From NCBI GenBank assembly GCA_023129535.1, contig JAGMBW010000116.1:1-52353 (forward strand): DNA of 52,353 bases, written 5' to 3'. Shown piece by piece: positions 25,622-51,335 of the stretch (the stretch's first letter is position 1; each line of letters starts with the position of its first letter). The notes under the pieces are model-generated. The model had not been told where the DNA came from and did not search any database. It was given only the letters and a program-made list of their open reading frames with translations. A program made the position numbers and the translations under genes. The stretch comes from Desulfobacterales bacterium (GTDB taxonomy: Bacteria; Desulfobacterota; Desulfobacteria; Desulfobacterales; C00003060).

Positions 25622-26521
25622 TCAATTTATAATTTTGTGGATCTGCCCCTTTCCCTTCACTATAAAGTACAAGCGAATCTTTTCAAGTTTTTTGCGGCCA
25701 ATTCCTTTTACTTTGAGCAAGTCATCGACGCTTTTGTAAGGCCGTCCAGCAATGATTCTCGCGGCAAGAACAGGGCCGATTCCTTTAATAGACTGGAGTT
25801 CCTTTTCAGTGGCGGTATTCAGGTCAAGCAAGCTTCGTGGGAGTTGGGCTTTTTTTACCTGGGTTTGTAGCTCCTGTAATTCGCGCTCTTCTCTGCGTTG
25901 TTTGTCGCGGAGCTCCACAATCCGATCCGGGTCACTCTCCGACCAAATGCCGGCACGTTTCAACATAGCCGAAATCTCCAGATCGTGGAGTCTTTCGAAT
26001 ATTTGGTTGCGCGGTATTCCATCGGGCGTTTTCCTGCCTACCCCATGAGTACGAGCCCAACCATTCTTGACGAGTAGACTTGCCAAATCATTTCCGTCGG
26101 CTGTGGTAATGAATCCATATACCCGGCCTTTTGACGACCTTCCCAATGCACTTGCGAAGGCCGTATGTAGAGTAAAAGATTTAGCAAGAATGCGCTGAAC
26201 GAAAGTTTTCGCCTCATTGCCGAAATGAATGGTGCGGGCCGCGTTGCATAATCCAAAATAGCGTGTTTGTTCCCGCACCCGGCGAGCATCGCTTTTGGAG
26301 CCAGTGGAGGTTTCGGGACAGTCAACAAAATAAAGTCTCACACGGAGTTGTTTTCCAGCAGCAACCACAAGGAAGCTATCACCATCGTTTTCAGGATTGT
26401 CCACCAGTTGAATGTTGGAAAACATTTGCAAATCAGCGGCAAATAATGGAAAAATACCACTAAACATCAATAGGGCTGTTGCGAATAAAAACGTGATGAC
26501 AAATTTTATGAATCTACTCAT
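25622..26521 (-). CDS. Exported staphylococcal-nuclease (SNase)-like nuclease fused to a ComEA-type helix-hairpin-helix DNA-binding domain
   Basis: N-terminal TM/signal. LRVRLYFVDCPE and KGRVYGFITTADGNDLASLLVKNGWA are SNase blocks. C-terminal LDLNTATEKELQSIKGIGPVLAARIIAGRPYKSVDDLLKVKGIGRKKLEKI is a ComEA-like (HhH)2. Confidence 0.7.
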   Translation of the reverse strand: MSRFIKFVITFLFATALLMFSGIFPLFAADLQMFSNIQLVDNPENDGDSFLVVAAGKQLRVRLYFVDCPETSTGSKSDARRVREQTRYFGLCNAARTIHFGNEAKTFVQRILAKSFTLHTAFASALGRSSKGRVYGFITTADGNDLASLLVKNGWARTHGVGRKTPDGIPRNQIFERLHDLEISAMLKRAGIWSESDPDRIVELRDKQRREERELQELQTQVKKAQLPRSLLDLNTATEKELQSIKGIGPVLAARIIAGRPYKSVDDLLKVKGIGRKKLEKIRLYFIVKGKGQIHKIIN

Positions 26522-26575
26522 AATCGAACGTCGTGCTCTGTTTGGAGCGTAAACATGAGTTGTAAAAGTGGAACC

Positions 26576-27250
26576 TTATATTTCCCTGATCTTTTCTATC
26601 TGAATTTCCAGAGGCTCCAATTCTTCCTCCCGCCCGAGCTTCCGCAACCGTTCTCGAAGCTTTTCAATTGCCTCTTCGAGCTGGGGCAATAATTCCTTCC
26701 GTATCTTTTCCCGCGCCAACTTGCCAGATCGCTTCATCTCTTCTGCCAGACGCTCCAATTCCTTTTCAAGCTTTTTGAACTCCTCACTTTCAGGAACTCT
26801 TCTTAAGTCCTCGAAGAATTGCTCGAACTGTTTTTTAAGATCCTCAAGCCCTTTTTCAAAGTCCGCCGAGATCTTACTGAAAATAGCTAAAAACTTGGTG
26901 GAGCCTTCAACAATCGCACCGTCCTGTAGAGGTGTTCCCCCTCTTCCGGTTTGGATCATTTGAATGGCCTTGCTTCCCTTATTTCGGAGATCCGCTATGA
27001 TGAAAAACTTGGAGTTCTCTGTAGCAGCGTTTGCAAAATGGTTTTTGATTTGCAAGTCTGCCACGTAATAGCCATCTACCGAATATGACACGCCTGTCAC
27101 TTTGCCTATGTGATTGTGCTCAAAAATTAGCCGGTCGCCTTCTTTAAGCCCTTGAATCTGATCATATCGGATCTTGATATTGAGGGCACTGTCTCCGCAC
27201 CCCCAAAATGCCAAAGCTAACATGAACAGAATCAAAATTCTTTTAAGCAT
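26576..27250 (-). CDS. MlaD/MCE-domain lipoprotein with a charged helical tail
   Basis: Lipobox LALAFWGCG (start ATG 27250). GLKEGDRLIFEHNHIGKVTGV..ADLQI is an MlaD-like beta-barrel block. E/K/R-rich C-terminal helix. Confidence 0.6.
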   Translation of the reverse strand: MLKRILILFMLALAFWGCGDSALNIKIRYDQIQGLKEGDRLIFEHNHIGKVTGVSYSVDGYYVADLQIKNHFANAATENSKFFIIADLRNKGSKAIQMIQTGRGGTPLQDGAIVEGSTKFLAIFSKISADFEKGLEDLKKQFEQFFEDLRRVPESEEFKKLEKELERLAEEMKRSGKLAREKIRKELLPQLEEAIEKLRERLRKLGREEELEPLEIQIEKIREI

Positions 27251-27710
27251 ACTCTGCCCACGCTCAGTAACTTGAGAGTCCAAAGTTCCCCGAAACGTTT
27301 CGGGCATGATTCTCTAAAGACCTGAAATCATTGATTCTGGTATTTCAAAGGTATTTTTTTCGGTTCTAACAATTTCAATGGGTTACGAGAACTTTAGACT
27401 GTCCAGTTATTTATGCCAATTTATTTTATAGCCAGTCAATATGGGAACACTGTCTTTGGTAATTATGTGCGTATGGACAACAAAAGACGTAATCTCTTTG
27501 AATCCATCCATAATCATGAGAACTTTGCTTGCAAAGGATGGTGGTGGTTTGTAAGCACATCAGCATATAAAATATAGAAGAAAATCATGGGTGAATATCG
27601 CAAATAAAAGCTACTCATAAAAATACCTCACAATCCTTTTTTGCGATTGAAGGACAATCAGCTAAAAAGGAACGCTCAGAATGAATCCGTGTCGAGTTCG
27701 AATTTTGCCG

Positions 27711-28376
27711 TTACCTCTCTGAGTATACCAATAATATCTCAATCCTACGATTGGCCGCCTTCCCCTCCTCTGTGTCGTTGGGCATGATGTAATTATACTC
27801 ACCGTAACCGGCTGCGCCCAGGAATCTCTTATCGGACAGGGAAGGCAGCAAGATTTTGTGCTTCAGGAAATACTTGGTTATGTAAACTGCACGTGCTGTA
27901 GATAGCTCCCAGTTAGAAGGATAACGTTTTGAATAAATTGGAGTCGTGTCTGTGTGTCCTTCGATATAGATTTGATCAAACAACCTGTTTTCATAGTAAG
28001 TCCGGTGCAGTATTTCCCCTAAGGCGTCAAGGAATTTGAAGCTTTCCATTCTGTCGGGTGGGATTTCCGCCTTGCCCAAAGGAAACAACAAGGCACTGCT
28101 AAATCGCAACTTTTGGTGGTCGCCAATGGTTTCACACTGAATAGTATCCTTTGGTATCTTTCCTGTTGTCTCCATATCCTTAATCATTTGGACAAGGCGG
28201 CCCTGACGGTTCTTGATCTCGATTCTCTTTAGCGCATCACTAAGAAAAAAGCTTATGTGTTGTATAATCATGAAAAGTAGCAAAATCATCAGAGTGGCGA
28301 TGATGACATCAACCAGGGCCGGCCAGATATTCGGCATGGTGTTGCGGCTTTGATAGTATACATTTTTACGGTTCAT
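27711..28376 (-). CDS. MotB/OmpA-family stator subunit (ZorB-like)
   Basis: TM helix with a conserved Asp (IWPALVDVIIATLMILLLF). C-terminal OmpA-like peptidoglycan-binding domain IEGHTDTTP...NWELSTARA...NRRIEILL. The start is uncertain (TTG 28448, ATG 28376 or ATG 28337). Confidence 0.8.
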   Translation of the reverse strand: MNRKNVYYQSRNTMPNIWPALVDVIIATLMILLLFMIIQHISFFLSDALKRIEIKNRQGRLVQMIKDMETTGKIPKDTIQCETIGDHQKLRFSSALLFPLGKAEIPPDRMESFKFLDALGEILHRTYYENRLFDQIYIEGHTDTTPIYSKRYPSNWELSTARAVYITKYFLKHKILLPSLSDKRFLGAAGYGEYNYIMPNDTEEGKAANRRIEILLVYSER

Positions 28377-28423
28377 TGTTGAAATTTTTTGAAAGATAAC
28401 TAAGCATTTGGGGTCAAATGGTA

Positions 28424-30211
28424 TTAATAGCGTTTGAACGTAAACCAATTTAAAAAGGCCTTGAGTTTCCCTTTTTTCTCCACCTTAGATATCAAATTGG
28501 AATCAAAAGCATGACCCAATAAACTGAGTAAAGCCTGGTTAACTTCATTGGAATTTTTTAACGTGTTTTCGGTGTGTTTCAGCGTTTTTTCCATAACGGC
28601 AACGGAAGGAATGATTTTCTGGCTGAAAAAATCTCGCTGTTCTGAAGAAGCGGCTTCGAAACATTGCACAGTTCTTTCGATCAATTGTTCGCTGGATTGA
28701 TTATGGGCTTCGGTCTGATTCTCGATGGCCACTGTAAGTTTAGGCAGGACCTGTGAAAAAATATCATCCAGCTTGGTCGTAATCTTCGTGACCTGATTGT
28801 CGAATCGGGTTTCAAGACGGCCCTGTTGTGCGGCTATCTCCTCGCGTACACCCTCAAACCCTCGAGTGAGGTGGTCATTAAACACCTGATGGATCTCTTT
28901 TAACGAGTCCACGACCTTGACGTGTGATTCCGTAACAGCTTTCAGGTTTTCTATGTTAAGTTTTTGCTGGTCTTTGAGCATTGATTCGGTTTTATCCAGC
29001 AATTGTATCATTTTGTTGTTGGTATTGGTCAGAAAGCTGTTGTGATCCGCTTCTATACGCTGAATTTGTTGGTTCTGGAAATCAACCGCGTGAATGATAT
29101 TGCTCGAAGCCTCAAGCAGGCCTTCCTTAAAGTTTTTATCCATGTTTTGAATCGAAGTCTCTAGGCGGGCATATAGATTCTCTATTTCGCTTTTTTGCCC
29201 TCCCAACCCGTCAAATAGCTTTTCAATGGATGCCTGGCTGTTTTCCAAATGCCGTGCAAGGCCCTGCGAAAGTTTTACAAACGTCTCGTTTGCGTCAGAG
29301 ATCTTCAGGTAGTGGGCTTCAAGATCTGTCTGGGAGCGTGTGATCCCATCAACCGTGTGATAAAGCGTGTCGGCCATCCGGCTATGGACGTCCTGGTTGT
29401 CTGTAATCAGCGTCATGAGATCCGCGATACCGCTGGAGATTTCCACAAGTCCCGACCCGGACAGTTTCATCACATTTGCGATGGTGTCCAGACTGTCTTC
29501 CACTTTTTTGGGTGTAAAGAAAGGGATGAGAATATTCAGAGTAAAGCTCTCGAATTCCTCACCAAATGTTTCTTTGGCCCGCTCGTACACATGATTGACA
29601 AAGGAGAGCAGCAGGAATGCGAAAAAGCCGCACAAAGTGGAGGAAAATGCCGTTTCCATAAACCCCAGGCTGCCGAGCATATCTGAAATAATCCGCTGAA
29701 ATGCGTCGCGAGAAACCACACTGCCCATTCCCATCAGAATTCCACGCAGGTTGATGACCGCCTGGCTCAACCCCAGTATCGTCCCGATCAAACCGAGAAT
29801 GATCAAATTACCAGCAATATACCGGCCCCAGGATGAACGATATATATATGCCGCTTTTAGTGCGTCGGCAATAATCTCAACGTTCCCGTCCAGGCGTTTA
29901 ACCGCCTGTATGTCCTTGACCGCCTGTATGGTGAAACTTTTCCTGGAAAGCCCGGCATTCTCGATCTTGTCTAGCAACTCCCTGGGTTGTTGTTTGTCCG
30001 CCTCAAGAAATAGCTCGCGTATTTCCTTTAAGGCTCGGTTTTCTCGCCAGATCCGTATACGCCCCCAAACCACGATTAGGGTGCCTCCGGCAAAAAGAAG
30101 GATGATCAACCCGTTGACGATACAGGAAATAGCGGTACCGAAAAAGAAATGATATAGATATTCAGTCGGAATTTCCGGGTTGTCATTGAATAGCTGCAAC
30201 AAAAAATTCAT
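28424..30211 (-). CDS. MotA/ExbB/TolQ-family proton-channel protein with a ~350-aa C-terminal helical tail (ZorA-like architecture)
   Basis: TM helices flank LIILGLIGTILGLSQA (the GLxGTxxG channel motif) and LCGFFAFLLLSF. Residues ~240-595 are continuous heptad-like helix with no TM. Confidence 0.75.
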   Translation of the reverse strand: MNFLLQLFNDNPEIPTEYLYHFFFGTAISCIVNGLIILLFAGGTLIVVWGRIRIWRENRALKEIRELFLEADKQQPRELLDKIENAGLSRKSFTIQAVKDIQAVKRLDGNVEIIADALKAAYIYRSSWGRYIAGNLIILGLIGTILGLSQAVINLRGILMGMGSVVSRDAFQRIISDMLGSLGFMETAFSSTLCGFFAFLLLSFVNHVYERAKETFGEEFESFTLNILIPFFTPKKVEDSLDTIANVMKLSGSGLVEISSGIADLMTLITDNQDVHSRMADTLYHTVDGITRSQTDLEAHYLKISDANETFVKLSQGLARHLENSQASIEKLFDGLGGQKSEIENLYARLETSIQNMDKNFKEGLLEASSNIIHAVDFQNQQIQRIEADHNSFLTNTNNKMIQLLDKTESMLKDQQKLNIENLKAVTESHVKVVDSLKEIHQVFNDHLTRGFEGVREEIAAQQGRLETRFDNQVTKITTKLDDIFSQVLPKLTVAIENQTEAHNQSSEQLIERTVQCFEAASSEQRDFFSQKIIPSVAVMEKTLKHTENTLKNSNEVNQALLSLLGHAFDSNLISKVEKKGKLKAFLNWFTFKRY

Positions 30212-30394: not shown

Positions 30395-32191
30395 CTATAC
30401 TGATAAACCCTTTAGCTTATATTTATACAGAATTCGGAAAACAGACAGGACTCTGGGAGCCATCCAGACGCGCGCATCATAGGAAAGATCCGGCGTCCGG
30501 CTGCAGTTCATTTTAATGTGGATCCGATCCGAAATCCAGCGCGGCAGAAACCACATGGCCCTCACGTTGGGTGTATAAGACAATAAAACAGTTTCATCAG
30601 GAGAAAGACGCGGCAAACCGGATTTCCCCATTTGCCACAGCGTGTGTGCCCGGCTAAACTTGTTGTTTTCCCAACGTATGGAAAAAATACTCAGGGGCTC
30701 TGATCCCGTGTTTTTCAATCGGATCGTAAGGCAAGTACTTGTCCGGCTCCAGCACCACTTTCGGCTATCGAAAATGGAATCACATCTACTTTCGACAGTG
30801 CCGGCATGAACCGGGATCACATCTTTTATCACCAGTCCGTTATTCGCTCTGGCTCGGATCGTGATGGCTGTACTGATTGTTTTTCCGGGCGGCAAAGACT
30901 TTGATTCGAAAGTAAGCTGGGCTGCGTTAGGTGCCAGGATCGCCCCCGGGGCCACCACAATCCCCCTTAACGCCTCGGGAATGTCCACCTCGATATTGGA
31001 TACAGGCTGCATGGTATCGCTCTGGAAAAACTCCAATGTTTCCGTCTCCCGGCTTCCATAAGACACACGGCGCCAGTCAAGAGTCATTTTCCGGGGATAC
31101 CGGATCAAACGAACCAGATGCATTTTTACCTTCAGCCGGTGGCATCTGCGGTTGGCCACCCTGGAATCGGTCAAAATCAGGGCACTCAGGTTTTCAGCCT
31201 GAATGGGCCGCATTCTGGACGTATCGACACGCAGCGTAATTTGGTGTATTTGGCTTACCTTGATGTTCTTAATTTCTTCTTCATGTGAAATTCCGTTTCC
31301 GATACATTTCACTTTTAGCGTGCCGATCCCGTTCACGCTCAAGGGGATGACCAGTTTGAATGATTCACCCCATGACAAAGCCCGATCAACATTTATGGTA
31401 TTTTCTTTTAATTCCGAGCACACCAGATCACGGTTCCATACGAACTCCACCGGAATTTTTATCTCCCGCGTCTCTCCGTCTTCGCTTTTTAGCACCAGGA
31501 CCTCCATCTTATCCTGATCCGGCAGTTCCGGCCTTGAAACGGAAAAGCCCAGTTGAACCGGTCTGCCTGGTCGTATCTGAATGCTTTCAAAGTCCGGCAG
31601 GAGCCAGCCAGGGCAAGCGGCAACCCGATATTTTTTTAGCTCGATTGCTGATTTACGATGTCTGTCGTCCGGTTTGCCTCCGGGGAAAAACGTATAGTAT
31701 TCTTTCTGTGCCATGTTGGGATCGAATACTTGACAAACGCCTACGCCCGGAAGAACAGATATCGCTTCCCGTCGGTTATCGATGAGCGTTCGCTTCCCGT
31801 CGACGATTCTGTATACAAATTCCACTTCCGACTCGGTCAAGTCCATCCAGATTTGATAGGTTGCATCGGCCCCGGGCATCATTTCCCAGTTTTGGGAGAC
31901 GTCAGCCCCCCACCGGTTGAATTCTCCCTCTATTTTTGCAGAATGAAGCTCTTTTCTATCGATAACAAATTTATAAAAATGCTCTTGGCCAACCCGGATT
32001 CGAAACGGCGGCAATGGATCGAAATCCGTGTCCCCCCCTTCACGCCGGGCTTCATGTTCCACAAGTTGATAACAGGCGTTCTGATCTGTCAGTGCCAGCC
32101 GAGTACCCTCAACCTGTTGCCCTCCCCCGGCTTTCAGGGCCTGGGCAGCTTCCAAGTAAAGCCGTATGTGCTCTAATTTCGACAGGTCCAT
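30395..32191 (-). CDS. Cytoplasmic CBM48/AMPK-beta-like domain protein followed by several Ig-like beta-sandwich domains
   Basis: FRIRVGQEHFYKFVIDRKELHSAKIEGEFNRWG...WEMMPG..YQIWMDL..EFVYRIVDGKRTLID fits the GxFNxW..YKF.vDG pattern. No signal peptide. RBS AGGA. Confidence 0.5.
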   Translation of the reverse strand: MDLSKLEHIRLYLEAAQALKAGGGQQVEGTRLALTDQNACYQLVEHEARREGGDTDFDPLPPFRIRVGQEHFYKFVIDRKELHSAKIEGEFNRWGADVSQNWEMMPGADATYQIWMDLTESEVEFVYRIVDGKRTLIDNRREAISVLPGVGVCQVFDPNMAQKEYYTFFPGGKPDDRHRKSAIELKKYRVAACPGWLLPDFESIQIRPGRPVQLGFSVSRPELPDQDKMEVLVLKSEDGETREIKIPVEFVWNRDLVCSELKENTINVDRALSWGESFKLVIPLSVNGIGTLKVKCIGNGISHEEEIKNIKVSQIHQITLRVDTSRMRPIQAENLSALILTDSRVANRRCHRLKVKMHLVRLIRYPRKMTLDWRRVSYGSRETETLEFFQSDTMQPVSNIEVDIPEALRGIVVAPGAILAPNAAQLTFESKSLPPGKTISTAITIRARANNGLVIKDVIPVHAGTVESRCDSIFDSRKWCWSRTSTCLTIRLKNTGSEPLSIFSIRWENNKFSRAHTLWQMGKSGLPRLSPDETVLLSYTPNVRAMWFLPRWISDRIHIKMNCSRTPDLSYDARVWMAPRVLSVFRILYKYKLKGLSV

Positions 32192-33900: not shown

Positions 33901-33926
33901 TGTATGCTATCAAAATCCTCTAATTA

Positions 33927-34069: not shown

Positions 34070-34182
34070 TAATTATAAAGATAACGCCTTGCTAATTGTA
34101 CCGGATACAATTCATCAAGATTTACTGTCGGTGGTGATAAGGCATGCAGGATTTGAAAAGTCTACTTCCACAAAGCAAATGA

Positions 34183-37396: not shown

Positions 37397-37460
37397 AGCT
37401 GTGTTTATTTCCTTCACTTTTAATGCTTGATCATAAAGCTTCACTGAATTCGTCCCCAGT

Positions 37461-42439: not shown

Positions 42440-43095
42440 CAGCATAGAAACCCTTACCCTCCGGGTAAGGTCAGAGTTCAGTTGGCTTTGCCTTCTGAAC
42501 AGCTCATCTGTTACATCCACACCTGAGTTGTCCCCACAACGTCAGGAAAGGAGTAACAAATGAGCCATTTTCGGAAATTATCACATACAATATGGCATTG
42601 CCAGTACCATATAGTCTGGACCCCGAAATACAGATATCGAGTGCTTTCAGGGGAAATAGCTGATGAAGTCGATGGCTGTATTCGGGTATTTTCGGAACAA
42701 CAAAAGTGCGAGATAGACGAAATGAATATTCAAGTAGACCACGTGCACCTTCTTGTAATGATACCGCCGAAGATATCGGTTTCGAACTATGTTGGAACGG
42801 TGAAGGGCCGGACAGCGATACGAGTATTGAATAGGTTCCGGCACCTAAAACAGAAACCCTATTGGGGTAATCATTTTTGGACCAAAGGGTACTGTGTCGA
42901 TACAGTAGGCCTTGATTCAGAAATGATTCGCAAGTACATAAAGTATCAAGAAGCCAAAGAACGCAGAGAAGAACAACAGCGAAGCTTGTTCTAATTCGTC
43001 TACAGGGGACAACTCAACCTTGCCTCCTCTGGGGGCAAGGCAAATTACCCCCTTCCAGGGATTATATCAAAGCCACGTCCTCTGGGCGTGGATCT
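42440..43095 (+). mobile_element. IS200/IS605-family insertion sequence (approximate limits)
   Basis: A single Y1-transposase gene flanked by subterminal hairpins: CCTTACCCTCCGGGTAAGG (42452-42470), CCTTGCCTCCTCTGGGGGCAAGG (43019-43040) and CCACGTCCTCTGGGCGTGG (43073-43091). The 5' UTR GAGTTGTCCCC is complementary to GGGGACAACTC after the stop. The ~650-bp size is IS200-like. Confidence 0.7.
42560..42994 (+). CDS. tnpA: IS200/IS605-family Y1 (HUH) transposase TnpA
   Basis: 144 aa. WHCQYHIVWTPKYRYRVL, HUH motif DHVHLLV, catalytic Tyr region WTKGYCVDTVG. RBS AAAGGAG. Confidence 0.92.
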   Translation: MSHFRKLSHTIWHCQYHIVWTPKYRYRVLSGEIADEVDGCIRVFSEQQKCEIDEMNIQVDHVHLLVMIPPKISVSNYVGTVKGRTAIRVLNRFRHLKQKPYWGNHFWTKGYCVDTVGLDSEMIRKYIKYQEAKERREEQQRSLF

Positions 43096-43136: not shown

Positions 43137-43367
43137 TCAATCCAGCAGAAGTCGGCCGACTTCGTCGATATCCACTAGACCTCTGTTTTCCAGACGGATC
43201 TTCAATTTTACAGGCCCGCCCTGGCCAATATATATCGGTCCGGTATGCTCTATCCTGTCTTGAAGGAAGACTCGGATCGATTTCAAACGGGCTCCGCAAA
43301 ACCCACAGTACTTGTCGCCGGCGGCAGGATCAACACTGTACCCGCTGCAGCAGTAATTACATTTCAT
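43137..43367 (-). CDS. Zinc-ribbon ORF (76 aa), possibly truncated by the IS200 insertion
   Basis: CNYCCSG...KYCGFCG, then the beginning of an Ig-like strand pattern (PVKLKIRLENRGLVDIDEV). The stop lies at or next to the inferred IS right end. Confidence 0.45.
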   Translation of the reverse strand: MKCNYCCSGYSVDPAAGDKYCGFCGARLKSIRVFLQDRIEHTGPIYIGQGGPVKLKIRLENRGLVDIDEVGRLLLD

Positions 43368-43403: not shown

Positions 43404-46400
43404 CTATTCCCATGTGCCCATACTCTCGCTTTTATTCTCTTTTTCACTATTTTCGGAAATATCATTATCACTGCCTGGAGTTGCTTTTTTCGGTAGTTCG
43501 GCCGTTTCCGCCTCCCTTTGTCCTTCCCAGGCCAGCTCTAAAATGTACTCCGGTATCTTCCAGGGCTTTGATTCATCCCAACCTTCCTGGGTTTTTCTTT
43601 CCGTGGAAGCATTCTTGGCATCCATCAGGTATCTATACAACTGGTTGCCGTACTTTTCCGCGCCCCTCTCTTCAGGGGGTGAAAAAACAGAATTGTGCCA
43701 GCTAAGCGCAAACTTGGAATGATCCGAATTCCAGCATCGCATGAGCACCGGAAACCAGTCCCTGTCCGGCCGGGTCTTATCTGCCGACGCCAGCGACGGC
43801 ACAATTTCACAGAAGGCATGCATCCAACTGCAAAGGGTATCCGAATCCTGATTGAGGGCCTGAATCTCTTCACTGGTCAGCACCATATGTTTGATCGCTA
43901 CTTTCCTACGATCCTGAAGTTCCTTAATAATAAAATAGTGTGACGACTGTTTTTCAACCTTCTCCTGCATTTGATCCTTAAAATAATAATTTTCGTAATA
44001 GATCACCAAAGGCCAGATCTTGCGAAGCGTCGTGGTAGAATTCAATAAATCCTGATTTTTCTCCCGCAAACGCTGAAAGGGCTGGGTATAGTTATCCGAT
44101 ACCGGCCCGTAAAAGAAAGATATAATTTGACTGACCGATTGGCCGAGTGAAACCATTTGTGGAACCCCTTCCAATCCCTTTCGTTCCAGTACCATTTTGT
44201 AATCGCCGGTAGCTCGATCAAACCAGATGGCGCCAAGCAAAATACCCAGGAACAGTTCCGTTTCAACGTCTACTCCATTCTCAAGGGCAAGAAGCTCCCG
44301 AGTGTCTTCACCGCGGGTCCAAACGGCTTCTTTCCACGAGAAAACTTTATGCTGCTCCTTGAGGTTTTTCACAATATCCAAAATAAGCAGCGGAACGCCG
44401 TCGTCGATGGTGAGTATGATTAACTCCTTGCCTTGATAGCCTGACGGTTCGGCCTCGATCCCCATTTCCTTTATGACTTTTTGGGAAAGGTCTAAAATAT
44501 CAAACGGTGCAAACACCCATTGTTTTTTAATGGTACTTTTTGCTTTGCCGAATCGATCGGAACGGTACGTCAGGTAGGAATCGCTGGTTGACAGGCAATG
44601 TTTGATATCGGTTCGAAATTTACTTTCTTTTTCGGAGCCCAATTTTTTATAATAATCCTTGAGCGTCGGTTCTATTTCGAGTTCGGTAACTCCTCTATCG
44701 ATCAGGATCGCGGTCCACTGGCCGGTACCTTCTCTAAAGCTTCCGGCTCGGGAAATATCCCAGACACAGTTCAGTGATTTATATGTTCCGTCTTGCAGAA
44801 GCTCTCCAAATCCTTCCTTCAAGGTCTCCAGCATCAACATCTGAGAAGGTAACGGATTTGTAAGGGCCTCGGGCGTTTGGTAGGAAGCGCCGCAGTAAAT
44901 ATTTCTGGAGCGCATATGCTGGAACCGCGAGAGGTCGGCAAGCTCGATTCTGATTCCCTCCTTATTGGACCCATCTTCACGCTCAAGCAAATCCTTCAGA
45001 CTTCTTTCCAGGGTTCTGGGGGCAGCCCCTCGATATCGGGCGCTGATCATACCTCCCCGGTTTTCCAGAAGCTTGACGATCTCATTCTGAGCCTGGGCCA
45101 CACGTTCCAGGACTTTTTTAATCGCTATCACAAGCCCTCTAGCAATTTCATCCAGAGCGCTTCTAATTTTTGTGATTGACGTTGTTTTTATGAAGTCACG
45201 CCATTCATCAAAACAGTCTTCGCTCAAAAAACACTCCTGAAAACGACGGTATAAATCTCCGCGCACTTTATTGGCGAAATTTATCGGGATTTCATTCAAC
45301 TCGTCAATATAACCCAACGTTCTCAGAGGCTCTGCGAAGCATGCGGCCCAGCGCTGCACGGTGGAAGGCACATTTTTAAGGCCCATCCAATCCAGCTTGG
45401 CACTCTGGCTGACAACCCACTCCTGACACTCTGCCGTAAAATCCCCGGGTAGAGATTTATCATCGGCCGTATTGGCATTAACAAGTCTTTTCTCCCCTTC
45501 GGCTTTTTCAATCAAAGCGTCAATAAACGCAACCGTCGACTTAAGACCGTGCTCTGCAATCCAATACTCAAGCAGTTTGTTCACGCTCACGCCGGTCTCA
45601 CTATTCAATTTCTTTCTCCATTTGTTCAGGGCGGCATCAATGAGACCTTCATTGCCGTAGCAACCGGTTCCAGACTCGAAATTGACACCGGTAGAAACCT
45701 TTTTGAAAAAACTTTCAGGGGTACGGAGATTTTGAAAATCTTCCCGGACGGCCTGCAACATGGCATTGGAAAATGCCTGAAATATTTCCTGAACGCCCCA
45801 GCCGAATTGTTTCCATGCTTTCTGGGCATTATCGGCCACTTCCGCGGATGAGAGTGCTTCTTTTTCAAGAATCGTGGTAATAAATTGGTCCATCAGATAA
45901 AATGCAGCCCAGCGCTGAATCAGGGTTTCGCCGATGAATATTTTCGACAGACCGAATCCGCCATAATGCCGGGCATAGTCCCTGCTGCTGATGCTGTCCG
46001 TACTCTGAAAAACTTCGGTTGGCAGCGTGAACATCTCCTTGTTTTGCCGATAAGCATTGATCAGTTTGCCCTGCTCGCGCTCGACAAATTGGGTATACAC
46101 CATATCTGCCGTCATTTCCGTGGCATCCTCAGCACCCCAAAGAGAGTTCCCTCCCCGGTTGCGGGCACCAATAAGATAAGCCCAGTCAAAGGCCCGGGTA
46201 TGATTAAAAATGTCGTTGGGTTCTTTAATCAAACCGGTTGCCTCCTTATAGGGACTCCAGTCGGGGACAAAAAAATCGGCTTTTTCAAAACCGCGGTCAA
46301 AACAAAAATCGCTGGGTTGGTTCAACTGATACCTTTCCAGTTCGGAAAGCGCTGCATATGAGCCGGCCATCACGAGCTGCTGGGGTGAAAGATCTTCATC

Positions 46401-47165
46401 GACCAGTACTTTCGGCGGTTTAAAAGTTGATATAGCTGTCGAATCTTCGAGGATAATATCAGGAAGATAAAGAAAAAGCTTAATCCCTTTCAACCCGACC
46501 TCAGTGTAAATAATTCGATCTCTCAAGAAAAGTTCGTGAATTAGATAGGCCACATCCAGGAATATCCCTGATCCGGTGCCTCCTGCCGTTGAGCAAAAAA
46601 TAAGCACTTCAATATCGCGTTGCTCATGATCCAATGTAAACTGCCCATCGACGTTATCCCAGGCAGGATCAGGTGGGGCGTTAAGATCATGAAGGCGCCG
46701 GAACTTGTGCTGAAATGCCTCAACCAGATAGCGCTTCCTCCCCATCATTGCCAGCATGAACGCCAACTTACCAAATGCGCGAATCCCCGAAGCACCTTCT
46801 CTCAGCCTGACATGATCGAATCTCCTCAAGCGCGGATGAAACCATTTCAGGGCATCGACAACCTGGGGAACCACTTTCCCCTGATACAAATCTCTTAAAT
46901 CGTGTTCTTTCCAGGACAAATTGATGAACTCACCTTCTCCACCCGCTGTCACCGGAGAAAAGGAGACCTTTCGATCAATGGAGTCGTAAGTGGTTTTGTA
47001 CATCCTGGCACTTGGATCATTATCGGTGTCCAGAACAAGATATTCCAGAGCGGGAATTTTGATTAAACCGTAATTTTCATAAATTTTACGACGAAAAGCG
47101 CGGAGGGTTGCCTTGCCGAACCCGCCCAAGCCTACCATTAGTGTTTTTGGGATTGGAATTGCCAT
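43404..47165 (-). CDS. Giant tubulin/FtsZ-superfamily GTPase-like protein (1253 aa; N-terminal GTPase domain plus a ~850-aa unknown extension)
   Basis: T1-like LMVGLGGFGKATL (aa 9-21). Exact tubulin-signature-type T4 loop STAGGTGSG (aa 192-200). GASGIRAFGKLAF block. RBS GAGGT 6 nt upstream of the ATG. Confidence 0.75.
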   Translation of the reverse strand: MAIPIPKTLMVGLGGFGKATLRAFRRKIYENYGLIKIPALEYLVLDTDNDPSARMYKTTYDSIDRKVSFSPVTAGGEGEFINLSWKEHDLRDLYQGKVVPQVVDALKWFHPRLRRFDHVRLREGASGIRAFGKLAFMLAMMGRKRYLVEAFQHKFRRLHDLNAPPDPAWDNVDGQFTLDHEQRDIEVLIFCSTAGGTGSGIFLDVAYLIHELFLRDRIIYTEVGLKGIKLFLYLPDIILEDSTAISTFKPPKVLVDEDLSPQQLVMAGSYAALSELERYQLNQPSDFCFDRGFEKADFFVPDWSPYKEATGLIKEPNDIFNHTRAFDWAYLIGARNRGGNSLWGAEDATEMTADMVYTQFVEREQGKLINAYRQNKEMFTLPTEVFQSTDSISSRDYARHYGGFGLSKIFIGETLIQRWAAFYLMDQFITTILEKEALSSAEVADNAQKAWKQFGWGVQEIFQAFSNAMLQAVREDFQNLRTPESFFKKVSTGVNFESGTGCYGNEGLIDAALNKWRKKLNSETGVSVNKLLEYWIAEHGLKSTVAFIDALIEKAEGEKRLVNANTADDKSLPGDFTAECQEWVVSQSAKLDWMGLKNVPSTVQRWAACFAEPLRTLGYIDELNEIPINFANKVRGDLYRRFQECFLSEDCFDEWRDFIKTTSITKIRSALDEIARGLVIAIKKVLERVAQAQNEIVKLLENRGGMISARYRGAAPRTLERSLKDLLEREDGSNKEGIRIELADLSRFQHMRSRNIYCGASYQTPEALTNPLPSQMLMLETLKEGFGELLQDGTYKSLNCVWDISRAGSFREGTGQWTAILIDRGVTELEIEPTLKDYYKKLGSEKESKFRTDIKHCLSTSDSYLTYRSDRFGKAKSTIKKQWVFAPFDILDLSQKVIKEMGIEAEPSGYQGKELIILTIDDGVPLLILDIVKNLKEQHKVFSWKEAVWTRGEDTRELLALENGVDVETELFLGILLGAIWFDRATGDYKMVLERKGLEGVPQMVSLGQSVSQIISFFYGPVSDNYTQPFQRLREKNQDLLNSTTTLRKIWPLVIYYENYYFKDQMQEKVEKQSSHYFIIKELQDRRKVAIKHMVLTSEEIQALNQDSDTLCSWMHAFCEIVPSLASADKTRPDRDWFPVLMRCWNSDHSKFALSWHNSVFSPPEERGAEKYGNQLYRYLMDAKNASTERKTQEGWDESKPWKIPEYILELAWEGQREAETAELPKKATPGSDNDISENSEKENKSESMGTWE

Positions 47166-47223: not shown

Positions 47224-47580
47224 TTAACCGCCCAAAAGCCAAAACGCCATATAAGTGACACCGAGAGCGATGATGAAAGATATTATGCCCGAAACGACTC
47301 TAGGTCCCTGTCCCCATGAACTCTCATAAGCCGCTTTGGGGCCCAAGGTGCCTTGTCTAACCACCCTGGTAAATCTCATGGTCCTCACTCGAAAACAGAT
47401 ATAAAAAGCAAACAAGCCCAAAAGAACACCGACGACTATGGCGACTGTCAAGTTGACAGGGCTCGGGTTGCTGAAGTCTACCACGGCTTCCACGATGCCG
47501 GCGCATGCTAAGAAAAATGTAAGGAAGCTGCCTATACCGACTGCCCAACTCATGCTAGATGGTGCATTGTTAAAATTCAT
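47224..47580 (-). CDS. Small three-TM membrane protein
   Basis: ATG 47580 overlaps the upstream stop (ATGA coupling). Hydrophobic helices WAVGIGSFLTFFLACAGIV, LTVAIVVGVLLGLFAFYICF and VVSGIISFIIALGVTYMAFWLL. Confidence 0.6.
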   Translation of the reverse strand: MNFNNAPSSMSWAVGIGSFLTFFLACAGIVEAVVDFSNPSPVNLTVAIVVGVLLGLFAFYICFRVRTMRFTRVVRQGTLGPKAAYESSWGQGPRVVSGIISFIIALGVTYMAFWLLGG

Positions 47581-48953
47581 GAGACACACTCCATTTGAAA
47601 ATTATCGTTGGTGTTAAGTTCCGCCTCTATTCTTCTTAAGAAAAATATTTTCCCCCTGGAAATGACCGGCTGAGAGCAAATTTTCCCGGCTTTATTCTGA
47701 ACTTTTCCAGAACGGGAATTAATAAAAGTTTCGCGAATATTGCTTGCTTCAATATCGTAACGGACAAGGTCTCGACAGGTATCTTCGATTGTCCACAAGC
47801 TATTGTTAAGCGATGTAAAGGGTACGATTCGATCCACCTTGACCGGGGTTAAATAGTGCCCCATGCGCTTACCGGACGTCTTAATCGCGCCGAACTGATT
47901 GCTGCCGTCTATAAATAAAAGACAATTCTCACCCTGGCTGTTTATTACAGCGGTCAGGGGACCTGACTGTCCCAGTTGAACATCCCTGGTCCAATATCGG
48001 AGACGCTCTTTGAGTGGTTTGTCGCTGTTATGTTTAATCTCCAGAATGTCGAAAATATCGCCTACCTTACTCGCATTACAGACCCACAAATATATGCTGT
48101 TCGGGGTGCGCGTCTGGTAAAACTGGGCGGGTCCAATGAGTTTCAATCCTGAAACGGGAAAAAGGATTTCTTTTACTGATTGCCCTTGCGACCCGATTGT
48201 TAAAAGCCTTGCCTTTGGACCGGAATCAGACCCTTTGTAAGCGATAAAAACAGAGTAACTTTCTTCTGTCGCTATTATAAAAGGCTCTGAAACTATGAAA
48301 GCCTTGGCTAATGACAGATTATTCTTAATAAAACGTGATGCTTCGATTTCCCATCCATCCCAGACCGGATCCGCATTGTCTATACTTTTGTTATAAACAA
48401 GATCAAACTCCCTAAATTCAATAAAATTACCGTTTCGGATAATAAGCGGAACCCTAATTCCCGACCTTTTTTTATCGTTCCTTAAAGGTAAAACGCACGG
48501 TAGGCGAAAACATTCTTCATCATCGTTTTGGGCCTCCCAAAGTGTTAGATATTTTTGAAGAAAGCCGTTAAAAATGATTACGGCTCTTTGCCAAATCAAC
48601 AAAGCCCACGGAGACGATTGTAAATTCGTAATAATGCCGAGCAGCGGCCCCATGTTGATGTTGAACAAAATTCGGGATGTGTGTGTAACGCTTTCATCGA
48701 AATCAGGGTTGATGTTAAAATAACAGTACTGTCCGGAAGAACTCAAAAAGAAAGGATTGGATGCCACCTCCGCCCCTAAAATCCGCTCTACGTCTTTAAC
48801 AGGCCATTGTAATTCGGCGGAGCTTTTAGAAAATTTACTTGTCGGCGGCCCCCATTCAGTGAGATCAAGCTTCTGCCCACAGTGCACACAATATCGGCTG
48901 CTGTTTTTGTTTTGATGGCCGCATTGGCATTTTAGTTTGTAATTTATATACAT
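47577..48953 (-). CDS. Zinc-ribbon protein with a beta-rich (propeller-like?) body
   Basis: CQCGHQNKNSSRYCVHCG at the N-terminus. RBS TGGAGG. The rest is not recognised. Confidence 0.6.
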   Translation of the reverse strand: MYINYKLKCQCGHQNKNSSRYCVHCGQKLDLTEWGPPTSKFSKSSAELQWPVKDVERILGAEVASNPFFLSSSGQYCYFNINPDFDESVTHTSRILFNINMGPLLGIITNLQSSPWALLIWQRAVIIFNGFLQKYLTLWEAQNDDEECFRLPCVLPLRNDKKRSGIRVPLIIRNGNFIEFREFDLVYNKSIDNADPVWDGWEIEASRFIKNNLSLAKAFIVSEPFIIATEESYSVFIAYKGSDSGPKARLLTIGSQGQSVKEILFPVSGLKLIGPAQFYQTRTPNSIYLWVCNASKVGDIFDILEIKHNSDKPLKERLRYWTRDVQLGQSGPLTAVINSQGENCLLFIDGSNQFGAIKTSGKRMGHYLTPVKVDRIVPFTSLNNSLWTIEDTCRDLVRYDIEASNIRETFINSRSGKVQNKAGKICSQPVISRGKIFFLRRIEAELNTNDNFQMECVS

Positions 48954-48988
48954 GAACGACGGCCTCCAGTCGTAAAAGCGTACAGTTA

Positions 48989-51253
48989 TTAAGGCCTTAA
49001 TTTTATCCGGTAGTAAAGAAAAGGCACCTCGAAATCTTTGCTTATGCTTTTGGATTCCAGTTCAACAAGTATCTTCCCAGCCTCCTTTTTAGAACCAATA
49101 AACGGCTTTTGATCTTCATCGACAATCAAAGTAACGTTCGGATTGGCGAGGAATTGTGAAATGCGGCATGTCGGCTGGTTAGTTGCATTAAAAATTACAT
49201 CCTTGACCAGCCGCTTGGACGTACCGGGTTTCGGCAGACAAACCACTTTTATAGTCTGTCCCATAATTTCTTCTACATTTGTATTGATCATTGACTTAAC
49301 CGCAAACCCTCTATCGAAAAGCCCTCTGTCGTTGGTTGTAACGTCCTCGCCCCTGGATATAAACCGTAGCGGCGTCTTCTCACTGGCCCCAAGTTTTTCA
49401 CCTGTTTGGTTATGGGCAATTTCCCATTCAAGCTTCGGAGATACCATGTGAAGCCGAATCTGATGGCTGAGTTTCGAGGATGACTTGCCATCATATTGGA
49501 TAACACCATTTTTAACACTCACCAGGAGGTTAACAGTTCTATCTCCATAAGTAGTTGCCTTTATTTTATAATTCAACCACTTCGGACTTGCAATGGTTGT
49601 TTTGACAATGCCACCGTTCATAGGAATTTCGAATCCGGAATCAAAAGAATCCGTGATGGTGAACTTTACATCCTTACATTTTTCGCCCTTGCATCCTTTT
49701 AGCAAAAACTCGGTATTAAGGGAAAGTCCTGTTGCAACGGGCTCTATTAATACTGCATCCTGAATTTCATGCGAATAACCTGTTAATGGTATTTGGATGT
49801 CACCCGCCTTAAAACTAATTGCCACGGAAGGTGGCAGGGTTTGAACATTAAGAGGTATTTCCGCTTTTGCCGATGTCCCCTGGATGCGAAAAGCAATCTT
49901 CTGGTTTTGGATTGTTTTTATTTTATCCATCCGAAAGACAATTGTTCGGCTCAGAAGATCACTCAATCGGAAGGGTATTTCTATAGGATCTTTCCCGCCA
50001 GGTATAGTAAAATAGCCGATGGAATTGCCGCTCCTGGGTCTTTCTTCCAATATAACCGTCTTGCCGACCGCACCATAATTCCAAGCAAGCTCGATGGGTT
50101 CTATGATAGTTGACCCTTCGAACAAACCTTTACGAAAATATTTTTTGCCGACCGGATAATTTTTGATATAAAGAAAAGCAGCGCTCGCAAAATAAAAAGA
50201 TGTCTTTGTTGCCTGGGGCAAAAAGGCTTTTTGTAGGTCTGCAACCTTTAGTGGATCTAATTCAGGCTCAAAATATATTAAATGGGGTTGATTAAAAAAG
50301 ACATCATCCATCTGCTCCAACCGCTCTTTTGCATTCCTGAAACTGATTTTTACATTTTTTATATCAAATTTGCCGGTTATCCGATCTGCATATTGGGTGA
50401 GATCAAATTCATCCATACCATTTATTAAAATATTCGATCCGGGAATATCCTTGCAGGACGCCCTCACTTTCATCGTAATATTTTTGGAAAGCAGCCGGGG
50501 AGCAATCAAACCGCGTATTCGGGTATCGCCATCACTCATCTCAACAATCTTCCCCTCCCGATCTTTTAAGGTTACAACGAAAGGATCAGGAGGGTGTATA
50601 AGCGCCCTTAAAGGCACTTTGTTTATCGGAGTGGGGATAACGCCTGGCAAGGACAGGATGCTAAGGACCTCTTCTGGAGTGATGACCTTATATTCATCCC
50701 CTTTGTCTGTAACGGCACTCCATGTATAGCAGTATAAGGTCCACTCAACATTTTTAAGATCAACTTTCAGATAGGTGTTCAGTCTTTGTACAGCATCTTT
50801 AAGTGAAATCTTGCCTGGTGATGTCTCTTGTAAATCACTGAATAAGTGCACCTCTACAGATTTTAATCCGCCTCCAATGATTTGCTGTATTACTTCATCA
50901 AGCCGATCTCCGATAGTTGTCAGCCCGCCGGGCTTGTATGGTTGTAACAACTCCCTCGCTTTTTCTATACTAATGATTTCCTGGGAGAAACTGGTTTTGA
51001 GCCGACTGTCAAATAAAATGATGGTAACCCTTCTCCTCCCCGGCTCCGGAGGAATATTATTTAAAAGGTCATATATTCTTTCCTTTGCCACCTCAAAAAC
51101 CGGCTTTTTGCTTTCCTGCTCCCTTGCCCACATCGATGCGGATTTGTCCAGCAGGATGAACAGATGCTCACTGGCAAATGCAGAATATCCTGCCCCCATA
51201 AAAAATGTTAAAAATATAAGGAAAAGAATAATTTTGTAGCAGTATTTTTTCAT
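48989..51253 (-). CDS. Secreted/anchored von Willebrand factor A (vWA) domain protein with a long beta-rich C-terminal region
   Basis: Signal/TM IILFLIFLTFFMGAGYSAFA. MIDAS-type LFILLDKSASM, later GGLTTIG and HLFSDLQET. ATG 51253 follows AGGTGG. Confidence 0.75.
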   Translation of the reverse strand: MKKYCYKIILFLIFLTFFMGAGYSAFASEHLFILLDKSASMWAREQESKKPVFEVAKERIYDLLNNIPPEPGRRRVTIILFDSRLKTSFSQEIISIEKARELLQPYKPGGLTTIGDRLDEVIQQIIGGGLKSVEVHLFSDLQETSPGKISLKDAVQRLNTYLKVDLKNVEWTLYCYTWSAVTDKGDEYKVITPEEVLSILSLPGVIPTPINKVPLRALIHPPDPFVVTLKDREGKIVEMSDGDTRIRGLIAPRLLSKNITMKVRASCKDIPGSNILINGMDEFDLTQYADRITGKFDIKNVKISFRNAKERLEQMDDVFFNQPHLIYFEPELDPLKVADLQKAFLPQATKTSFYFASAAFLYIKNYPVGKKYFRKGLFEGSTIIEPIELAWNYGAVGKTVILEERPRSGNSIGYFTIPGGKDPIEIPFRLSDLLSRTIVFRMDKIKTIQNQKIAFRIQGTSAKAEIPLNVQTLPPSVAISFKAGDIQIPLTGYSHEIQDAVLIEPVATGLSLNTEFLLKGCKGEKCKDVKFTITDSFDSGFEIPMNGGIVKTTIASPKWLNYKIKATTYGDRTVNLLVSVKNGVIQYDGKSSSKLSHQIRLHMVSPKLEWEIAHNQTGEKLGASEKTPLRFISRGEDVTTNDRGLFDRGFAVKSMINTNVEEIMGQTIKVVCLPKPGTSKRLVKDVIFNATNQPTCRISQFLANPNVTLIVDEDQKPFIGSKKEAGKILVELESKSISKDFEVPFLYYRIKLRP

Positions 51254-51335
51254 ATTCACACCCACCTACTATGCGACAAATGTTGACGGTGTCTGTCCCC
51301 CCAACAAGTAACCAAATATTGTATTAGTCATAAAA

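Follow-up and report, generated by a model that had tools for sequence, protein, structure and literature searches.

Within the tubulin/FtsZ superfamily, FtsZl1 proteins rank among the branches that have diverged most. The present analysis concerns a gene array that includes a gene of this kind, located on the minus strand of a Desulfobacterales contig (JAGMBW010000116.1, assembly GCA_023129535.1) and encoding, side by side, a tubulin-like GTPase, a fusion of a kinase-like domain with the nucleotide-binding domain (NBD) of Hsp70, GrpE-like proteins, an exported von Willebrand factor A (vWA) protein and a ZorAB-like stator. The whole stretch of DNA that was analysed, 52,353 nucleotides (nt) long and referred to below as the window, is chromosomal. 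The FtsZl1 family was defined by Makarova and Koonin in 2010, in operons that also encode vWA, kinase, diverged GTPase and OmpA-family proteins, and a membrane-remodelling machine was proposed on that occasion (PMC2875224). The text of the same study is silent on Hsp70, GrpE and MotA-type partners; its supplementary tables list, as FtsZl1 neighbours in single genomes, MotA/TolQ/ExbB together with OmpA (Deinococcus radiodurans DR_0537/0536), GrpE (Cagg_1315) and DnaK (amb2961), the order in D. radiodurans being a protein of 478 amino acids (aa), one of 109 aa, FtsZl1, MotA/TolQ/ExbB, OmpA, "LLR" and a kinase. Related components reappear in the GAP1-N2 GTPase-centric conflict systems described by Kaur, Burroughs, Iyer and Aravind in 2020, which are found mostly in Actinobacteria and Firmicutes and follow three non-overlapping themes: tubulin with vWA; HSP70 with GrpE, including HSP70 without a peptide-binding domain; and kinase with Zn ribbon (PMC7159879).

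When compared with the FtsZl1 operons, the Desulfobacterales locus shows the same N-terminal diverged tubulin/FtsZ domain with its T4 signature, followed by a long helical and globular C-terminal region, and the same company of vWA, kinase-domain, OmpA-family and several membrane proteins, except that the kinase domain is here fused to Hsp70 and probably inactive. In contrast, the diverged P-loop GTPase (Walker A, Walker B, TxKD) that is frequent, though not obligatory, in those operons is absent, a Walker A motif occurring in none of the 15 proteins of the array. The OmpA proteins were moreover taken in 2010 for outer-membrane barrels and not for stator B subunits, and the window adds the kinase-like::Hsp70 fusion, three Zn-ribbon modules and the orf6, orf7 and orf10 products (Table 1). 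With the GAP1-N2 systems the locus shares a tubulin with a helical C-terminus plus vWA, HSP70 plus GrpE, and kinase plus Zn ribbon plus a beta-rich region, as well as membrane-proximal parts with peptidoglycan-binding domains and inactive enzyme domains. However, these three themes are mutually exclusive there and stand in one Desulfobacterales operon here. The core of the GAP1-N2 systems is a TRAFAC GTPase with N-terminal Zn ribbons plus GAP1, and a MotA/ZorA-type stator is not mentioned among them (0 occurrences of MotA in PMC7159879). Neither a P-loop motif nor a family match pointed to a TRAFAC-clade GTPase in the window, a result that covers only the GTPase half, since the libraries contain no GAP1 model; orf2 does carry an N-terminal Zn ribbon, without GTPase motifs. 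As no GTPase of that type is present, the locus is not a GAP1-N2 system.

Nor is it a Zorya system, because the partners that define the Zorya types are absent: the window has neither ZorC with ZorD, nor ZorE, nor ZorF with ZorG, and the Zorya soluble partners gave no PADLOC match among the 14 window proteins scanned. Common to both is a MotAB-type pair with a B subunit that has one transmembrane (TM) helix bearing an Asp and a peptidoglycan-binding domain; the A subunit, here only tentatively ZorA-like, ends in a long helical tail. The tail of orf11, however, measures ~360 residues against ~500 in ZorA, its similarity to ZorA is weak, and the partners are a tubulin-like GTPase and Hsp70/GrpE where those of Zorya are DNA-binding or nuclease proteins. 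The likeness to the DnaK-GrpE pair comprises a complete NBD with the invariant catalytic Lys and Glu and both phosphate loops, and a partner with the GrpE C-terminal domain; unlike in DnaK, a substrate-binding domain or lid is not detectable and the NBD lies near the end of a 1250-aa fusion, and the GrpE-like proteins carry N-terminal regions of at least 400 aa unrelated to GrpE. No J-domain protein was found. An initial annotation of this DNA, made from the sequence alone, had presented the array as a candidate undescribed system. Some of its parts have in fact been known since 2010 (PMC2875224) and 2020 (PMC7159879); the apparent novelty is that a long-tailed ZorAB-like motor is joined here to the tubulin, Hsp70/GrpE and kinase themes while a P-loop GTPase is missing. 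No literature linking Zorya or MotA to tubulin-like proteins or Hsp70 was found, coverage of subscription journals being incomplete, so that this absence is not proof.

Gene-neighbourhood conservation, which the initial annotation had set as the deciding check, turned out positive in both close and very distant relatives. The conserved order runs from the secreted vWA protein through a Zn-ribbon protein, a 3-TM protein, FtsZl1/Tubulin_2, the 76-aa Zn-ribbon protein, the kinase-like::Hsp70-NBD fusion, a 360-aa protein, the 2-TM coiled-coil protein, the GrpE-like protein and a 600-aa protein to the ZorA-like and ZorB-like subunits. Three loci whose tubulin-like proteins are 40-42% identical to that of the window (L001, L003 and L007) keep this order, with variable inserts, from the vWA gene to the membrane/coiled-coil protein after the ~350-aa overlapping gene, the partner proteins being 20-33% identical to those of the window; L003 adds a GrpE-like protein. 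Two further loci, L092 (Desulfobacter latus, GCA_013389365.1) and L093, with ZorA-like proteins 38% identical, supply the other half: kinase::Hsp70, orf6-like, orf7-like, one or two GrpE-like, orf10-like, ZorA-like and ZorB-like genes. The complete order is retained in no fewer than six independent contigs or genomes despite protein identities of 20-48%, which argues for a single system and not for a chance juxtaposition. We therefore consider it very probable, on comparative grounds, that the ~12 conserved genes at 27711-51253 form a single conserved system.

At its downstream end the array stops at 27711, since orf13 and orf14 are absent from the systems of relatives. For the orf13 product, which combines a lipoprotein-type leader with a coiled coil and a weak PqiB/MCE-like match, none of the relatives, not even at 93% identity, yielded a counterpart. 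As for orf14, its only match is in L091, on the opposite strand, ~9 kb past the ZorB-like gene and beyond an IS21-type element. An AT-rich gap of 400-460 nt separates orf12 from orf13/orf14, and the contexts downstream of the ZorB-like gene are fully divergent among relatives. The nuclease that had been listed among the parts of the machine must accordingly be taken out, since relatives with 82-93% identity already lack both orf13 and orf14 in their systems; for the same reason, the lack of conservation with the system, the candidate SNase-HhH effector was rejected. The orf14 product resembles an extracellular or competence-type nuclease. In L009 an SNase gene also lies nearby on the other strand, which may be coincidence.

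Table 1. Features of the array and its surroundings, in the direction of transcription of the array (window coordinates)
Feature	Coordinates	Strand	Product or nature	Remarks
Promoter-like site	51336..51364	-	TTGACA-17-TATTTT	putative, consensus match only (10/12 positions)
orf1	48989..51253	-	exported vWA protein, 754 aa, signal peptide or anchor	VWA_2, DKSAS
orf2	47577..48953	-	cytoplasmic, 458 aa, N-terminal Zn ribbon	Pfam DZR, Zn_Ribbon_1 (weak)
orf3	47224..47580	-	small 3-TM membrane protein, 118 aa	three hydrophobic segments; start overlaps orf2 stop (ATGA)
orf4	43404..47165	-	FtsZl1/Tubulin_2 tubulin-like GTPase, 1253 aa	Pfam Tubulin_2 E 6.8e-37, residues 9-428
s76	43140..43367	-	76-aa Zn-ribbon protein (CxxC...CxxC)	between tubulin-like gene and Hsp70 fusion
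IS200-type transposase gene	42560..42994	+	transposase; outside system	Pfam Y1_Tnp E 1.2e-40; in s76-orf5 spacer
orf5	38536..42267	-	kinase-like::Hsp70-NBD fusion, 1250 aa	Pkinase E 3e-27, HSP70 E 3e-12
orf6	37464..38555	-	~360-aa protein	start overlaps orf5 end; position conserved
orf7	35897..37504	-	2-TM protein	two strong hydrophobic segments; start codon uncertain, possibly near 37348
orf8	34183..35841	-	GrpE-like, 552 aa	Pfam GrpE E 1.3e-7, residues 410-547
MITE-like insertion	33921..34075	.	~155 bp, 23-bp terminal inverted repeats; outside system	spacer between GrpE-like genes
orf9	32221..33900	-	second GrpE-like, 559 aa, recent tandem duplicate of orf8	Pfam GrpE E 2.7e-7
orf10	30395..32191	-	598-aa protein	always immediately upstream of ZorA-like gene
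orf11	28424..30211	-	ZorA-like subunit of a MotA/ExbB/TolQ-type motor, 595 aa	3 TM and all-helical cytoplasmic tail of ~360 aa
orf12	27711..28448	-	ZorB/MotB-like subunit	ZorB1 HMM, OmpA domain; last conserved gene
orf13, orf14	25622..27307	-	orf13 lipoprotein-like with coiled coil; orf14 signal peptide, SNase, two HhH	not conserved with system

The assignment of orf4 to FtsZl1 rests on both the tubulin motifs and the overall architecture. The glycines of the T1 loop and the T4 loop GGTGSG (residues 195-200; AGGTGSG at 194-200) are invariant in 24 homologues, in agreement with the GGGTG(S/T)G-type T4 signature that characterises the family, and the long helical C-terminal region, with a total length of ~1000-1250 aa, is likewise present. 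An AlphaFold2 model of residues 1-1200 (mean pLDDT 77.6, pTM 0.65) is mostly helical from about residue 413, with pLDDT around 90 over much of 400-950, and its top Foldseek matches in the PDB are all CetZ, tubulin or FtsZ. Some 850 extra residues had been noted in this protein; ~800 are present, and they are typical of the family. In a profile search of a database of 1.84 billion representatives, orf4 reached 8,786 clusters (at 50% identity) with E <=0.001 and 2,630 with E <=1e-30, and most of the best 150 matches listed align over nearly the whole length. Close relatives, scoring above 1,200 bits, are confined to five of these 50%-identity clusters (P0004, P0005, P0008, P0010 and P0012), 40-82% identical to orf4 over the full length.

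The immediate partners of orf4 recur with it. For instance, counterparts of orf1 lie upstream of the tubulin-like gene in L001 and L003 (30-33% identity) and also in L005; the Pfam VWA_2 match of orf1 (E 9e-5) is under the curated cut-off, and the metal-ion-dependent adhesion site (MIDAS) motif DKSAS (DxSxS) is intact at residue 36, following a single N-terminal hydrophobic segment and preceding a beta-rich C-terminal part of ~540 aa. For orf2, L001, L003 and L007 have homologues (24-26% identity) whose genes stand two places ahead of the tubulin-like gene, right before the small TM gene. Beyond its Zn ribbon no family was matched in Pfam, NCBIfam or PADLOC and no Walker A motif is present; the homologue search yielded near-identical proteins only, too uniform for an alignment. 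The idea that orf2 is a homologue of the 520-630-aa protein preceding the tubulin-like gene in other phyla was rejected (hhalign probability 0.1%). Counterparts of orf3, of 107-118 aa, occupy the same position in L001-L008, and in many distant loci the tubulin-like gene comes after a gene for a protein of ~110-170 aa; DR_0539 of D. radiodurans is such a protein. The gene s76, which was recovered through comparison with relatives, has counterparts of 73-86 aa at the same position in L001, L003, L005 and L007, 35-82% identical.

The orf5 protein consists of the kinase-like domain, a conserved Cys/His motif (C, H, C, C), a beta-rich middle, the Hsp70 NBD and a C-terminal domain of ~150 aa. Its family profile matches the whole DnaK NBD (E 1e-43), and hhalign aligns it to E. 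coli DnaK over residues 2-378 only, with a probability of 99.75%. The Hsp70 residues D15 (phosphate loop 1), K84, E169, D191, G193-T196 and D198 are invariant, the DxGGGTxD loop included, and K84 and E169 align with the catalytic Lys and Glu of DnaK. Neither hhalign to DnaK nor the profile matches in the PDB, which stop at the NBD, revealed a substrate-binding domain or helical lid, in line with the earlier description of an Hsp70 module devoid of a substrate-binding domain and fused to a kinase-like domain. An interpretation of the C-terminal 150 aa by eye as a lidless substrate-binding domain found no support in either search. The kinase domain presents the opposite picture. In the window it has AVK and HGD and lacks the DFG Asp (AVP), and in 4 of the 5 family members, i.e. 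all four homologues, the catalytic Asp of HRD is Asn (HGN), with the Lys missing in two. The domain is probably a pseudokinase, because the HRD, DFG and VAIK residues are not conserved. Of the "three NTPase classes" counted previously, the GTPase and actin-fold ATPase sites are therefore invariant, whereas the third is doubtful owing to its degenerate catalytic residues.

In orf8 and orf9 the GrpE match is confined to the last 70-140 residues. Their N-terminal regions, of ~400 aa or more (~470 aa in the earlier estimate), belong to no known family. A leave-one-out hidden Markov model (HMM) built from GrpE-like genes beside distant tubulin-like genes recognises orf8 with E ~1e-10. The two genes lie in direct repeats (32221-35914) with 79-91% nucleotide identity and a period of ~1.95 kb; close relatives have one GrpE-like copy (L005, L095) and L093 has two. 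Both orf8 and orf9 are without the ~155 N-terminal residues of the 704-aa homologue in L005.

The stator assignment is firmer for one subunit than for the other. By its sequence, orf12 is clearly a MotB/ZorB-type protein: it matches PADLOC ZorB1 (E 1e-22), Pfam OmpA (E 1.9e-10) and MotB chains in the PDB (E 2.5e-19), and aligns over its full length to the ZorB chain 8vvn_B of the ZorAB complex (E 2.4e-11). It has one TM helix with a conserved Asp (LVDVI), followed by GHTD and NWELSTARA (NxxLSxxRA), motifs which we take to be those of OmpA-like peptidoglycan binders. The evidence for orf11 consists of a weak PADLOC ZorA3 match (E 1.9e-5), an NCBIfam ZorA score of 17 bits against a curated cut-off of 190, 36 bits with a leave-one-out HMM of tubulin-linked MotA-like proteins, and a low-confidence AlphaFold2 model (pLDDT 58) whose listed Foldseek matches are all ExbB, TolQ or ZorA (TM <=0.67); a sequence search of the PDB gave nothing relevant. 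All the stator pairs beside Tubulin_2 genes in cyanobacteria, Cloacimonadota and D. latus are recognised by ZorA and ZorB models, and their A subunits are long (470-740 aa). With a vWA protein that has a signal peptide, membrane proteins of three and two TM segments and a MotAB/ZorAB-type pair bearing the TM Asp and the NxxLSxxRA motif, the machine can be upheld as envelope-anchored, and with the tubulin T1 and T4, the Hsp70 phosphate-1 and phosphate-2 and the Lys and Glu residues all invariant, also as NTP-dependent.

The remaining conserved genes are recognisable mainly by their position. Homologues of orf6, of 339-359 aa, lie right after the Hsp70 gene and mostly overlap it (L001, L003, L007, L092, L093); no match in the PDB, Pfam or NCBIfam was obtained. 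A reading of orf6 by eye as a degenerate Hsp70/actin fold was rejected, since hhalign assigned it a probability of 0.3% against the Hsp70 profile and no match came out of the PDB profile search. The orf7 protein has a periplasmic stretch of ~250 aa between its TM segments and then a cytoplasmic coiled coil; its Pfam and NCBIfam matches are weak and of the coiled-coil type only, and its homologues at the same position are ~55% identical in L005 and L095 and 25% in L092 and L093. For orf10, homologues at 24% identity hold the same position in L092, L093 and L097, with no match in Pfam, PADLOC or NCBIfam. In an NCBIfam scan of ten proteins 8 of 10 gave nothing, and the matches of orf7, orf11 and orf13 were sub-threshold only.

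A scan of one genome per GTDB species (185,579 species genomes) with a Tubulin_2 alignment gave at least 397 confirmed loci, the best 80 of which were kept and, together with L009 and L010, make up 82 distant loci; with orf4 as a single sequence, a scan of genome contigs had found no relative, so that an alignment query was needed. None of the best 80 is more than 31% identical to orf4, and they come from Cyanobacteria, Melainabacteria/Obscuribacterales, Acidobacteriota, Planctomycetota, Cloacimonadota, Desulfonema, Parabeggiatoa and others. Partner genes were found with iterated HMMs, single-sequence phmmer having missed most of them; BLAST single-linkage clustering joined kinases to Hsp70s via the fusion protein, and its Hsp70 count was not used. 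A MotA-like (ZorAB-like) gene is present in 24 of the 82 loci, nearly always with a MotB-like gene, and in 21 cyanobacterial loci the pair lies just downstream of the tubulin-like gene; the minimal four-gene form of vWA, tubulin-like, MotA-like and MotB-like genes is widespread in cyanobacteria. An Hsp70-NBD gene occurs in 18 of the 82, and in 10 of these 18 (Acidobacteriota) it is accompanied by a gene for a GrpE-like protein whose N-terminal region is long. Since a genome holds, by our estimate, few MotA-family or Hsp70 genes, these frequencies are far above chance. Cloacimonadota (L009, L039) have Tubulin_2, Hsp70, three unknown genes, MotA_ExbB and OmpA together. Leave-one-out HMMs made from distant loci only recognise orf5, orf8, orf9, orf11 and orf12 of the window. 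A scan of JGI metagenomes with the ZorA-like alignment gave three loci only.

A different sub-architecture was seen in Melainabacteria/Obscuribacterales (L012-L036, L084), where Tubulin_2 is preceded by vWA, with an LmeA-like gene further upstream, and followed by a second ORF of ~206 aa, placed with the tubulin-like family by BLAST single-linkage clustering; stator and Hsp70 are lacking. One metagenome (ENA ERZ27252164 / JGI 3300028595; L001-L004, L007, L008) contains three distinct window-type systems with tubulin-like proteins ~40% identical to that of the window, which suggests that one community harbours either several carriers or paralogous systems. Genes of mobile or defence type also accompany the system in relatives. 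L001 has a UPF0175/PIN toxin-antitoxin pair within the system (17836-18578), L093 a vWA protein, a DHH-DHHA1-CBS protein and a Peptidase_S74 protein in or beside it (12851-21699), and D. latus a block of AAA, DUF2997, DUF3150, SSB, PDDEXK and UvrD genes directly past the ZorB-like gene (L092 13143-21164).

Taken as a whole, we lean, tentatively and at somewhat under an even chance, towards an FtsZl1-class system that would defend against invading phage or DNA by a local, threshold-controlled assembly at the membrane. The mechanism that we infer takes Zorya as its analogy (Hu et al. 2024, PMC11946911). Here orf11 and orf12 would form a peptidoglycan-anchored, ion-driven 5:2 motor, and the orf11 tail, with a reach of up to ~50 nm if extended like that of ZorA, would carry an envelope-disturbance signal into the cytoplasm, as in Zorya. 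The periplasmic vWA protein orf1 and the 2-TM protein orf7 could give ligand or wall contacts, while the 3-TM protein orf3 and the Zn-ribbon proteins may tether the FtsZl1 GTPase at the inner membrane face. GTP-dependent FtsZl1 assembly would be switched by the Hsp70-NBD ATPase and the switch reset by the GrpE-like exchange factor, by analogy with the DnaK-GrpE cycle, with the dead kinase domain serving perhaps as a binding or decoy module instead of an enzyme. Because the core contains no classical toxin or nuclease, the effector would be either ion leakage via the motor or the assembly as such.

Several traits of the defence type speak for such a role: the Zorya likeness of the stator; a sparse and patchy spread over many phyla (the 8,786 clusters among 1.84 billion representatives); the apparently inactive kinase domain, the recent duplication of the GrpE-like gene and the IS and MITE insertions; lineage-specific inserts, including the toxin-antitoxin pair of L001; and the placement of related components among conflict systems in 2020 (PMC7159879). 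A number of observations weigh against it. Among the core genes no effector is recognisable, the only PADLOC matches being to ZorA, ZorB and kinase models, and all contacts between the parts are inferred. The ZorA-like call itself rests on weak sequence scores and on the model with pLDDT 58, and as PADLOC holds no other MotA/ExbB models, the ZorA matches may mean only membership of the MotA superfamily. To our knowledge, no member of this system or of the FtsZl1 family has been studied experimentally. The flanks are housekeeping genes (metE, lpxC, coaD and an ntrC-type regulator) and no defence island. A phage collection contained no homologue and a plasmid collection four only, on three Thermaceae megaplasmids and one 5.5-Mb Bacillus record. 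Finally, inheritance of FtsZl1 was reported to be largely vertical in cyanobacteria, actinobacteria and planctomycetes (PMC2875224), which better suits a cellular function.

It is to such a function that the strongest alternative, a serious rival that we rate as somewhat less likely than defence, appeals: following the proposal of Makarova and Koonin, the locus would encode an apparatus for membrane remodelling or envelope maintenance, similar to an accessory divisome, that bends, constricts or repairs the membrane or forms vesicles, with the tubulin-like polymer and the actin-fold Hsp70 NBD acting like FtsZ and FtsA and a TolQR/Pal-like motor coupling them to the wall. The parts do parallel FtsZ, FtsA and Tol-Pal (tubulin fold, actin-fold ATPase, ExbB/TolQ-like fold, OmpA-like domain), several components are membrane or periplasmic proteins, and the missing toxin-type effector (PADLOC), the housekeeping flanks, the lineage-wide and partly vertical inheritance (PMC2875224) and the widespread minimal cyanobacterial form with vWA, tubulin-like, MotA-like and MotB-like genes all fit it. 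What it does not explain well is the sparse distribution (at least 397 confirmed loci in 185,579 species genomes), the strong variation by lineage of the gene content round the tubulin-like gene, the features usual in conflict systems (Zn ribbons, inserts peculiar to single lineages and a dead kinase domain), and the long ZorA-type stator tail, which TolQ and ExbB lack.

Far less probable is a surface-adhesion or gliding machine like Agl-Glt of Myxococcus, in which contacts travel along the cell by means of a TolQR-like motor, a vWA adhesin and a cytoskeletal track. Stator, cytoskeletal NTPase and exported vWA protein are indeed found together here, and Tubulin_2 loci exist in the filamentous gliders Desulfonema magnum, Parabeggiatoa and Oscillochloris and in many filamentous cyanobacteria. 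However, no outer-membrane barrel or secretin-like component was recognised with Pfam, Desulfobacter latus carries the full window-type cluster, and the family is also present in Microcystis, Deinococcus, Bacillus anthracis and Thermus, which are not known to glide. That tubulin-vWA, Hsp70-GrpE and ZorAB-like modules merely happen to follow one another on one strand is highly implausible, for although the modules do occur apart elsewhere (tubulin with stator only in cyanobacteria, tubulin with Hsp70/GrpE only in Acidobacteriota) and the IS200 and larger gaps break the array, the complete order recurs in the diverged relatives described above, near-identical strains being excluded, the junctions are tight or overlapping, and all three modules are joined again in Cloacimonadota.

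Should the favoured defence reading be correct, the Zorya principle of envelope sensing by a rotary motor would extend to a non-nuclease, polymer-forming output; should remodelling be correct, an accessory divisome-like system would be at hand, and either reading bears on the function of the ZorA-type tail and on tubulin-family polymers outside cell division. A broader suggestion, which at present we regard as possible but less likely than not, is that FtsZl1, in place of nucleases, constitutes a second widespread class of partner for long-tailed ZorAB-like motors, in some lineages with a dedicated Hsp70-NBD/GrpE switch, and that the tail would gate or mechanically drive polymer assembly at the membrane. 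If true, this would be a new machine coupling ion flow to cytoskeletal assembly that could act in immunity, with the window as its most elaborate known form. In any case a tubulin-like protein has repeatedly been wired to two machines that are understood elsewhere, the MotAB/ZorAB-type motor and the Hsp70-GrpE cycle, and the stator Asp, the T4 loop, the Hsp70 Lys and Glu and the ZorA-like tail offer handles for mutation. The association of FtsZl1 with long-tailed ZorAB-like motors in general merits experimental study.

As regards the layout, 25622-51265 is tiled by long minus-strand ORFs, and the one-strand array is real. Of the 17 coding sequences counted initially, however, 15 are supported, i.e. 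14 ORFs of at least 80 aa plus the conserved 76-aa gene at 43140-43367. Both overlaps that had been called hold up. The ATGA overlap (47577-47580) leads to a 118-aa orf3 that fits its homologues, and the 20-nt overlap (38536-38555) places the orf6 start at 38555, in agreement with residue-1 alignments in close relatives and with overlapping gene pairs in distant ones. The leader upstream (51266-52353, 1.1 kb) is AT-rich (GC ~0.35-0.39) with a longest ORF of <=59 aa, and contains the reported TTGACA-17-TATTTT match at 51364-51336. The opposite-strand IS200 was likewise recovered (Y1_Tnp E 1e-40, 42560-42994), as was the MITE, with its 23-bp terminal inverted repeats at 33921-34075 and a length of ~155 bp as opposed to the 143 bp first given. 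The spacer between s76 and orf5 (42289-43139) has 851 nt here versus 24 nt in the closest relative, L005, and terminator-like hairpins on both strands; the IS200 insertion may be polar on nine downstream genes, and the system could here be partly silenced.

The rest of the window contains metE, pcm, coaD, rsmD, an NtrC/NtrY-type pair, lpxC and comM. A cobalamin riboswitch at 66-348 on the minus strand (Rfam RF00174, 68 bits, E 9e-15) lies downstream of metE (750-3068) on that strand and presumably controls a gene beyond the window start. Between 19104 and 25344 six same-strand genes on the minus strand encode proteins of 292 aa, 455 aa (DUF1598), 200 aa and 297 aa, a Zn-ribbon protein of 224 aa and an SLT lytic transglycosylase of 221 aa; none of this block was matched beside the system in relatives. 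Finally, AAA_14/DUF4143 ATPase genes occur near the system both in the window (15960-17369, minus strand) and in the Cloacimonadota locus L009 (892-4164).

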